In this document: positions 8,346 to 10,235 of the stretch, one piece after another | Numbering within the stretch: the stretch's first letter is position 1 | Layout: each line of letters opens with the position of its first letter | NCBI RefSeq assembly: GCF_003334255.1 | Contig: NZ_QOWU01000003.1 | Length of the DNA: 64,000 nucleotides | Strand: one strand, 5' to 3' | Source of the DNA: Escherichia coli | Lineage (GTDB): Bacteria; Pseudomonadota; Gammaproteobacteria; Enterobacterales; Enterobacteriaceae | Position numbers and translations under genes: made by a program | The notes under the pieces: model-generated | The model's input: only the letters and a program-made list of their open reading frames with translations | Database searches by the model: none | Told to the model about the DNA's origin: nothing

Positions 8346-10235
8346 TTACGCATCACCACCGAAACGACGACGACCGGTAGAATCATCACGACGCGGAGCG
8401 CGGCCTTCACGACGTTCGCCGCTAAAACGACGACCATCACCACGGCCACCTTCACGGCGTTCACCGCTGAAGTTACGACCGCCTTCACGACGTTCGCCAC
8501 CGAAACCACGACCACCGCCACGACGCTCACCGCCAGTATGCGGCTGTGCATCGCCCAGTAACTGCATGTTCATCGGCTTGTTGAGAATGCGAGTGCGCGT
8601 AAAGTGTTGCAGCACTTCACCCGGCATACCTTTCGGCAGTTCGATGGTGGAGTGAGAAGCAAACAGCTTGATGTTACCAATGTAACGGCTGCTGATGTCG
8701 CCTTCGTTAGCAATCGCACCAACGATATGACGAACTTCAACACCATCATCGCGGCCCACTTCAATGCGGTACAGCTGCATATCGCCAACATCACGACGTT
8801 CACGACGCGGACGATCTTCACGGTCACCACGCGGGCCACGGTCGTTACGATCGCGCGGACCACGGTCATCACGGTCACGGAATTCACGTTTCGGACGCAT
8901 CGGCGCATCTGGCGGTACGATCAGAGTACGTTCACCCTGTGCCATTTTCAGCAGTGCCGCAGCCAGAGTTTCGAGATCCAGCTCTTCACCTTCAGCAGTC
9001 GGCTGAATTTTGCTCAGCAGTGCGCGGTATTGATCCAGATCGCTGCTTTCCAGCTGCTGCTGTACTTTAGCGGCGAATTTTTCCAGACGGCGTTTGCCTA
9101 GCAGTTCTGCGTTCGGCAGTTCTACTTCCGGAATAGTCAGCTTCATAGTACGTTCAATGTTGCGCAGCAGACGACGCTCGCGGTTCTCAACGAACAGCAG
9201 CGCGCGGCCAGCACGACCCGCACGACCGGTACGACCGATACGGTGAACGTAAGACTCAGAATCCATCGGGATATCGTAGTTAACTACCAGGCTGATACGC
9301 TCAACGTCCAGGCCACGGGCTGCAACGTCGGTCGCAATCAGGATGTCCAGACGACCATCTTTCAGGCGTTCCAGTGTCTGTTCACGCAGCGCCTGGTTCA
9401 TGTCACCGTTCAGCGCGGCGCTGTTGTAGCCGTTACGCTCAAGAGCTTCAGCCACTTCCAGAGTCGCGTTTTTGGTACGAACGAAGATAATCGCCGCATC
9501 AAAATCTTCCGCTTCCAGGAAACGTACCAGTGCTTCGTTTTTGCGCATACCCCAGACAGTCCAGTAGCTCTGGCTGATGTCAGGACGGGTAGTCACGCTG
9601 GACTGAATGCGCACTTCCTGCGGCTCTTTCATAAAGCGGCGGGTAATGCGACGAATCGCTTCCGGCATGGTTGCAGAGAACAGAGCGGTCTGATGACCTT
9701 CCGGGATCTGCGCCATAATGGTTTCAACGTCTTCGATGAAGCCCATGCGCAGCATTTCGTCAGCTTCATCCAGAACCAGACCGCTCAGTTTAGAGAGGTC
9801 CAGAGTGCCACGTTTCAGGTGGTCCAGCAGACGGCCCGGAGTACCGACAACGATCTGCGGCCCCTGACGCAGGGCGCGTAATTGCACGTCATAACGCTGG
9901 CCGCCGTACAGAGCAACCACATTTACGCCGCGCATGTGTTTAGAGAAATCCGTCATTGCTTCAGCAACCTGTACCGCCAGTTCGCGGGTCGGTGCCAGCA
10001 CCAGAATCTGTGGTGCTTTCAGCTCAGGATCAAGATTCTGCAACAGAGGTAAAGAGAATGCTGCAGTTTTTCCGCTCCCCGTCTGGGCCATACCCAGAAC
10101 GTCGCGGCCATTCAGCAGATGTGGAATACACTCTGCCTGAATTGGAGATGGTTTTTCGTAACCCAGATCGTTAAGGGCTTCAAGGATAGGAGCCTTCAGG
10201 CCCAGATCTGCAAAAGTGGTTTCGAATTCAGCCAT
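8346..10235 (-). CDS. deaD: Cold-shock DEAD-box RNA helicase DeaD (CsdA), 629 aa
   Basis: ORF track 8346..10301; start trimmed to [13 protein letters not shown] (plus-strand cat at 10233..10235); motifs [26 protein letters not shown]; Arg/Gly-rich C-terminal tail. Confidence 0.93.

Follow-up and report, generated by a model that had tools for sequence, protein, structure and literature searches.

The repetitive arginine- and glycine-rich C-terminal tail of Escherichia coli DeaD: a catalogued disordered region with in-frame length alleles and compositionally open overlapping frames

Introduction

The eukaryotic DEAD-box proteins LAF-1, DDX4 and Ded1/DDX3X carry RGG/RG regions that are Gly/Arg-rich, disordered, attached to the DEAD-box core and tied to RNA binding and condensates.

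In the bacterial helicases RhlE1 and RhlE2 of Pseudomonas aeruginosa, RNA binding, specificity and phase separation are all determined by C-terminal disordered regions, as has been tested directly by chimeras and deletions (PMC11260450). The basic tails of Mss116p and CYT-19 are described, in work cited in PMC3814787 and PMC3590231, as unstructured and as tethering the helicase core non-specifically to large RNAs. The C-terminal extensions of the Escherichia coli DEAD-box proteins are thought to provide binding to RNA or to partners (PMC1616957).

A good deal of this background concerns DeaD itself, a cold-shock RNA helicase also named CsdA. The ATP-independent annealing activity of CsdA has been attributed to its long basic C-terminal extension, proposed to be the likely part for annealing or tethering RNA (PMC3590231). 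According to the summary of Xu et al. 2017 given in PMC11850223, the affinity for an RNA 32-mer is 0.07 µM for full-length CsdA, ~1 µM for the isolated RNA-binding domain and 28 µM for the dimeric core. A tail-less construct is reported to perform well in both ATP hydrolysis and unwinding (PMC11850223), and full-length CsdA is prone to aggregate, whereas residues 1–443 are soluble (PMC3814787). DeaD foci in E. coli cells are mentioned in PMC7414142, which cites Hondele 2019 for them. Purified DeaD undergoes phase separation that depends on salt and concentration (PMC12758526); both foci and droplets were shown for full-length DeaD only. The published truncations remove either everything after residue 443 or a ‘C-terminal tail’ along with other changes. 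In the literature that we searched, there is no experiment isolating residues 565–629 and no demonstration that RNA binding or condensation is driven by the final 62 residues in particular.

Here, we describe the tail of DeaD as encoded in a stretch of 64,000 nucleotides of the E. coli chromosome (the window), including its repeats, its predicted disorder, its natural length alleles and the open reading frames (ORFs) that overlap it. Coordinates are given in Table 1. An earlier sequence-only reading had drawn attention to this tail, and its claims are considered below where the evidence bears on them.

Table 1. Features in and around the deaD tail, with window coordinates
Feature	Coordinates	Strand	Evidence or remark
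mtr	6948..8192		Downstream neighbour of deaD
Intrinsic terminator hairpin with T-run	8279..8303	-	43 nt past the deaD stop
Antisense ORF, 110 aa, Pro/Arg/Ser-rich (P 23, R 22, S 19)	8323..8655	+	TTG start in the deaD-mtr spacer
Same-strand +1-frame ORF, 71 aa, Val-rich	8336..8551	-	Terminates 10 nt past the deaD stop
deaD (csdA) coding sequence	8346..10235	-	629 aa plus stop; start is the ATG of MAEFETT
Gly/Arg/Glu-rich C-terminal tail, residues 568–629 (Pfam DeaD_C)	8349..8534	-	PF12343, composition, model
18-nt direct repeat GGCGAACGTCGTGAAGGC, downstream copy in gene direction	8403..8420	-	Alignment of deletion allele
Core DNA tandem repeat, period 33 nt x 2.9 copies, 11-residue peptide unit	8439..8534	-	Tandem Repeats Finder
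12-nt unit duplicated in WP_001306022.1 (CGT GAA GGY GGT frame, R-E-G-G)	8480..8491	-	Alignment
18-nt direct repeat GGCGAACGTCGTGAAGGC, upstream copy in gene direction	8481..8498	-	Alignment of deletion allele
Folded DbpA-type RNA-binding domain, residues 481–564	8544..8795	-	PDB 5b88, Pfam PF03880, alignment, model
Arg/Asp/Pro-rich linker, residues 446–482	~8790..8900	-	Repeat families D3 and D5
nlpI	10415..11299		Upstream neighbour of deaD

The deaD gene and its ends

The identity of the gene is clear. A 451-nt query over the tail region has a match in every one of the 5,426 complete E. coli genomes; among the matches listed, each is annotated as deaD. The protein belongs to the NCBIfam DeaD equivalog NF008642, scoring 1397.5 bits against a cut-off of 989, with residues 1–629 aligned to profile positions 1–628. 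A Pfam scan detected all of the DEAD, Helicase_C, DeaD_dimer, DbpA and DeaD_C domains.

On the minus strand, the stop codon of deaD occupies 8346–8348. At the other end, the mechanically generated ORF list extends the protein to 651 aa by starting from a TTG upstream of the true ATG. Database entries for DeaD likewise use three different starts (within 10236..10301, minus strand, for the longer forms), giving proteins of 629, 646 and 651 aa, the longest of which begins at the upstream TTG. These choices reflect inconsistent annotation and no biological difference. The same end of the gene is overlapped by the small ORF yrbN (26 aa, 10228..10308, minus strand), which terminates 8 nt inside deaD and overlaps its ATG. 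The same yrbN-deaD overlap occurs in Salmonella, there with a match to Pfam PF28071 (YrbN). This arrangement suggests translational coupling of yrbN to deaD.

A repetitive tail with predicted disorder

Residues 568–629 consist of 32% Gly, 31% Arg, 11% Glu, 6.5% Asp and 6.5% Phe, so that acidic residues make up ~18% of the tail; its net charge is +8, and it contains no aliphatic residues and no Tyr, His or Gln. The tail is assembled from degenerate F(G/S)GERREGGR units and matches Pfam PF12343 over the full length of that model (E 9.2e-12, residues 568–629 against model positions 1–62 of 62). The repetition is visible in the DNA as well as in the protein: Tandem Repeats Finder reports the core coding repeat with 71% matches and a score of 108, and a further family (D2) has three 42-nt copies, at 8403–8444, 8448–8489 and 8481–8522, with 74–86% identity. 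The hexapeptide GERREG occurs three times in the tail, a count reached in 70 of 20,000 composition-preserving shuffles, which argues that the tail shows true repetition beyond its compositional bias. Codon choice is strongly optimised, with CGT accounting for 17 of the 19 Arg codons.

The sequence-only reading had placed degenerate repeats in the last ~70 residues of DeaD, and repeats of the GERREGGR type are indeed there. A 20-residue stretch that it quoted as part of them lies elsewhere, at ~454–473, within a second low-complexity region, the linker of residues 446–482. This is ~100 residues upstream and beyond the folded RNA-binding domain, which stands between the linker and the tail. The range it gave, 8346..8560, covers the repeat tail and also QLLGDAQPH, ~9 residues that precede the repeats and are not part of them. 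The RNA-binding domain itself is well defined, matching PDB 5b88 with an E of 1.3e-50 and having 34 invariant columns in an alignment of homologues.

Several lines of evidence point to disorder in the tail. The title of PF12343 is ‘DeaD helicase C-terminal disordered region’. Solved structures of DeaD span only residues 6–210, 218–445 and 481–564, and the tail is absent from all of them. In an AlphaFold2 model of residues 480–629, built from a 33-sequence alignment, residues 562–629 have a pLDDT of 42–50 and no secondary structure, and the RNA-binding domain has a pLDDT of 61–77 and beta-alpha-beta elements. In the Uversky charge-hydropathy test, the tail lies on the disordered side (mean hydropathy 0.276, below the boundary of 0.457, with a fraction of charged residues of 0.46), and the helicase core and the RNA-binding domain lie on the folded side. 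The tail is accordingly modelled as disordered and flexible.

The pattern of divergence between E. coli and Salmonella fits this picture. Non-synonymous differences affect 9.2% of tail codons compared with 1.2–2.6% in the other regions of DeaD, while synonymous differences in the tail (24.6%) are ordinary when set against the 18–28% found elsewhere. High non-synonymous combined with ordinary synonymous divergence is what one usually sees in a disordered region where selection acts on composition and not on the exact sequence.

Length alleles within and between species

The canonical tail length is present in ~96.5% of the 5,426 complete E. coli genomes. Roughly 160 of these genomes carry a +12 nt allele encoding an extra EGGR (633 aa, WP_001306022.1), a tandem duplication of the 12-nt unit listed in Table 1. 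A -78 nt (26 aa) allele, giving a protein of 603 aa (WP_005001325.1), occurs in 21–23 genomes and is a deletion situated exactly between the two perfect copies of an 18-nt direct repeat, GGCGAACGTCGTGAAGGC; recombination between these copies, or slippage, removes the 78 nt. In a single genome, a -132 nt (44 aa) allele at an 8-nt microhomology has removed nearly the entire repeat array and leaves 585 aa. The wider protein collection adds one E. coli allele of +34 aa and two different alleles of -5 aa. Tail length therefore differs in frame between strains, as had been anticipated from the repeats, with junctions at direct repeats; such variants are rare, and the tail is not hypervariable.

Genomes with the -78 nt allele fall into groups of related isolates (EC19/20/24/27, the EC0026B derivatives and Ec-U5/U11). 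The sequence backgrounds of the allele number at least two (100% and 99.2% identity), and it may have arisen more than once. Two ENA-derived DeaD entries, P0121 (829 aa) and P0122 (742 aa), have the region from residue ~400 to the repeat array doubled and joined inside a GERREGGRG unit, which could be a genuine tandem duplication or else an assembly error at the repeat.

Similar variation is seen in other species. A homologue search with the last 150 residues returned mostly fragments, which we used for cross-genus tails, and a search with the full protein provided the full-length comparison. Salmonella has alleles of +1, +2, +21, +22 and +26 aa, all of which are duplicated repeat units, and DeaD of E. 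marmotae is shorter by 2 aa. Between genera, the tail ranges from 55 to 105 residues past the NKPMNMQ anchor. The homologue alignment contains many indels, yet GERR(E) units and a terminal RRRFG(G)DA recur, and the tails that could be read to their C-terminus have a net charge of +5 to +11, typically +7 or +8. The tail is not invariant when C-termini are compared, and disorder prediction does not make it folded, so the sequence-only reading stands on both counts.

A literature search for deaD repeat polymorphism returned nothing relevant. The biology of the DeaD tail is already known and catalogued; the observation that led to this work is real and was read correctly apart from two descriptive slips. 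Our tally of natural in-frame tail-length alleles with repeat-mediated junctions, which we did not find described in the literature searched, is a modest addition.

Proposed role of the tail and alternative explanations

We favour a joint reading, to which we give a probability of about three in four: DeaD ends in a catalogued, disordered, basic repeat tail that serves as an RNA tether, the length of this tail drifts by way of its DNA repeats, and the ORFs that overlap it are compositional. The tail would act as a non-specific, multivalent tether that lends avidity to the dimeric helicase core as well as to the neighbouring RNA-binding domain with its sequence preference, and it would speed strand annealing. 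Weak, Arg-mediated contacts made by the tail could let full-length DeaD cluster with RNA in foci or condensates. The description of the tail as a low-complexity extension of the RNA-binding or condensate type is supported by the Pfam name, the structures, the pLDDT values, the charge-hydropathy test and the published work; we infer that the last 62 residues specifically drive RNA binding and condensation. With ~18% of acidic residues, this tail should bind RNA less well than a purely basic one. The DNA repeats that encode the peptide repeat are nearly identical, and through slippage during replication or through unequal recombination they give rise to in-frame insertions and deletions, so that tail length drifts while composition, charge and the RRRFG(G)DA end are kept.

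The natural alleles also indicate how much the tail matters. Since the -26 and -44 aa alleles occur in otherwise intact genomes, the repeats are not essential under all conditions, and taken together with the catalytic activity of tail-less constructs, the deletion alleles suggest that the tail modulates DeaD and is not essential to it.

The first alternative is that the tail is neutral filler, prone to slippage and tolerated, with a composition upheld only by the mutational bias of the repeat DNA. Such an explanation would sit well with the presence of the -26 and -44 residue alleles in clinical isolates whose deaD genes are annotated as intact, with a non-synonymous rate in the tail ~4–8x that of the rest of DeaD, and with the range of lengths after the anchor motif (55–105 residues). 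It is harder to reconcile with the persistence across Enterobacterales of the tail composition, a similar net charge and the conserved RRRFG-DA end, with conservation sufficient for a Pfam family, with retention of the canonical length in ~96.5% of complete E. coli genomes, and with strongly optimised codon use (CGT in 17 of 19 Arg codons). We consider it unlikely.

The natural length alleles (in E. coli -44, -26, -5, +4 and +34 aa, in Salmonella from +21 to +26 aa) might be non-neutral and tune RNA tethering or the condensation threshold. We regard this idea as doubtful. If it were true, lineages would differ in cold growth, ribosome assembly or persistence, and the repeat would be a knob by which evolution slowly tunes a bacterial scaffold for condensates. 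Whatever their effect, these alleles might be used as ready-made variants in tests of the role of the tail.

In a further alternative, the main role of the tail is in regulation or in contacts with other proteins and not in tethering RNA: it could be concerned, for example, with docking to RNase E, the cold-shock degradosome or ribosomal particles, with autoinhibition, or with control of solubility or turnover. There is a precedent in the tail of RhlB, another E. coli DEAD-box protein, which binds RraA (PMC3814787). SerRS G208D, which gains negative charge, enters DeaD condensates more than the wild type does (PMC12758526), and partners of either charge, acidic or basic, could pair with the mixed-charge ERRE units. 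However, the literature searched contains no tail-specific partner, and the sequence has no resemblance to a short linear docking motif, except for the conserved RRRFG-DA end. As the main role of the tail, such a module seems improbable to us; it is in any case compatible with an RNA tether and does not exclude one.

Overlapping reading frames are forced open by the tail

The remaining element of the joint reading concerns the two long ORFs over the tail, both of which the sequence-only reading had described as antisense and attributed to the biased repeat sequence. The Pro/Arg/Ser-rich ORF at 8323..8655 is indeed on the plus strand; the ORF at 8336..8551 is on the strand of deaD itself, in the +1 frame, and is Val-rich.

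Third codon positions of the antisense frame fall on third positions of the sense frame, which makes a selection test based on substitution patterns powerless, and we used a recoding simulation instead. Residues 568–629 were re-encoded with random synonymous codons, drawn from either local E. coli or uniform codon usage, and both frames were free of stops in 5000 of 5000 recodings. For comparison, 62-codon windows of the helicase core have the +1 frame open in 0 of 381 cases and the same antisense frame open in 31 of 381. The reason lies in the genetic code. A stop in the antisense frame requires a sense TAN or CAN codon, i.e. Tyr, His or Gln, and a stop in the +1 frame requires a sense codon whose second base is T and whose third is A or G, i.e. 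Leu, Ile, Met or Val. As the tail contains none of these residues, both overlapping frames are forced open, and their openness is therefore uninformative about coding.

Neither ORF has the marks of a protein-coding gene. Neither matches any NCBIfam family, neither sequence is present in a collection of 15 billion predicted proteins, and there is no Shine-Dalgarno-like sequence upstream of the TTG start of 8323..8655. An Rfam scan of 8150–8950 gave sub-threshold matches only, of which the best scored 24 bits where the gathering score is 54, and we therefore propose no RNA element in this region. That one of the two ORFs is a real overlapping gene, as their length for their frames (110 and 71 aa) and an open antisense stretch in Salmonella might suggest, is extremely improbable given that openness is forced in every recoding, that the antisense ORF relies on a TTG without a Shine-Dalgarno-like sequence, that its N-terminal part lies in a non-conserved spacer which differs in Salmonella, and that no protein family, predicted-protein entry or Rfam family at gathering threshold corresponds to either. 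As firmly as sequence analysis allows, we regard both ORFs as by-products of the amino-acid composition of the tail and not as genes. The attribution to biased repeat sequence thus holds, with frames open in 100% of recodings and no family or database match; the demonstration that the overlapping ORFs are compositionally forced is a small addition.

A second ORF artefact of this kind lies at 8764..9006 on the plus strand (80 aa, Arg/Ser-rich), antisense to the linker of residues 446–482. It shares its relative frame with 8323..8655 and, over the linker, is free of stops in 3000 of 3000 synonymous recodings.

Many public DeaD entries, mostly from Logan/ENA assemblies, shift in mid-tail into the Val-rich +1 frame and end in ...VVMRNHR. 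They are only 3 residues longer than normal (e.g. P0007, P0008, P0028, P0040, P0075, P0085, P0206 and P0239) and are probably the result of homopolymer or indel sequencing errors. Because the +1 frame is open with no early stop, frameshift errors in DeaD stay hidden: as this frame closes only 10 nt from the true stop, they yield a near-full-length DeaD with a Val-rich tail that gets past pseudogene filters. For annotation, the practical consequence is that the antisense and +1-frame ORFs over the tail should never be called as genes.

Comparison with known systems

The tail of E. coli DeaD is the type case of Pfam PF12343 (DeaD_C), and there is no difference between the two. Like DeaD, RhlE1 and RhlE2 of P. 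aeruginosa are bacterial DEAD-box helicases with basic, disordered C-terminal regions (PMC11260450). They belong to another helicase subfamily, however, and lack both a DbpA-type RNA-binding domain and a dimerisation domain; the corresponding role of the DeaD tail would follow by analogy with these directly tested regions.

The tail also resembles the RGG/RG regions of LAF-1, DDX4 and Ded1/DDX3X in being Gly/Arg-rich, disordered and placed on a DEAD-box core. It differs from eukaryotic RGG boxes in its unit, the mixed-charge GERREGGR, and in its ~18% of acidic residues. Thandapani et al. 2013 reportedly defined Di-RGG and Tri-RGG motifs as RGG(X0-4)RGG, optionally followed by (X0-4)RGG. By these definitions, the tail is not an RGG box: it has a single RGG, at residue 572, and one Di-RG (RGGGRG), and contains no Di-RGG or Tri-RGG. 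E. coli is not known to have an arginine methylation system for the DeaD tail.

Finally, the DeaD tail can be likened to those of Mss116p and CYT-19, which are also unstructured and positively charged, and a tethering role in DeaD would parallel theirs. The arrangement is different. The tails of Mss116p and CYT-19 come directly after the helicase core, whereas that of DeaD comes after a dimerisation domain and a folded RNA-binding domain and would be a third RNA contact.
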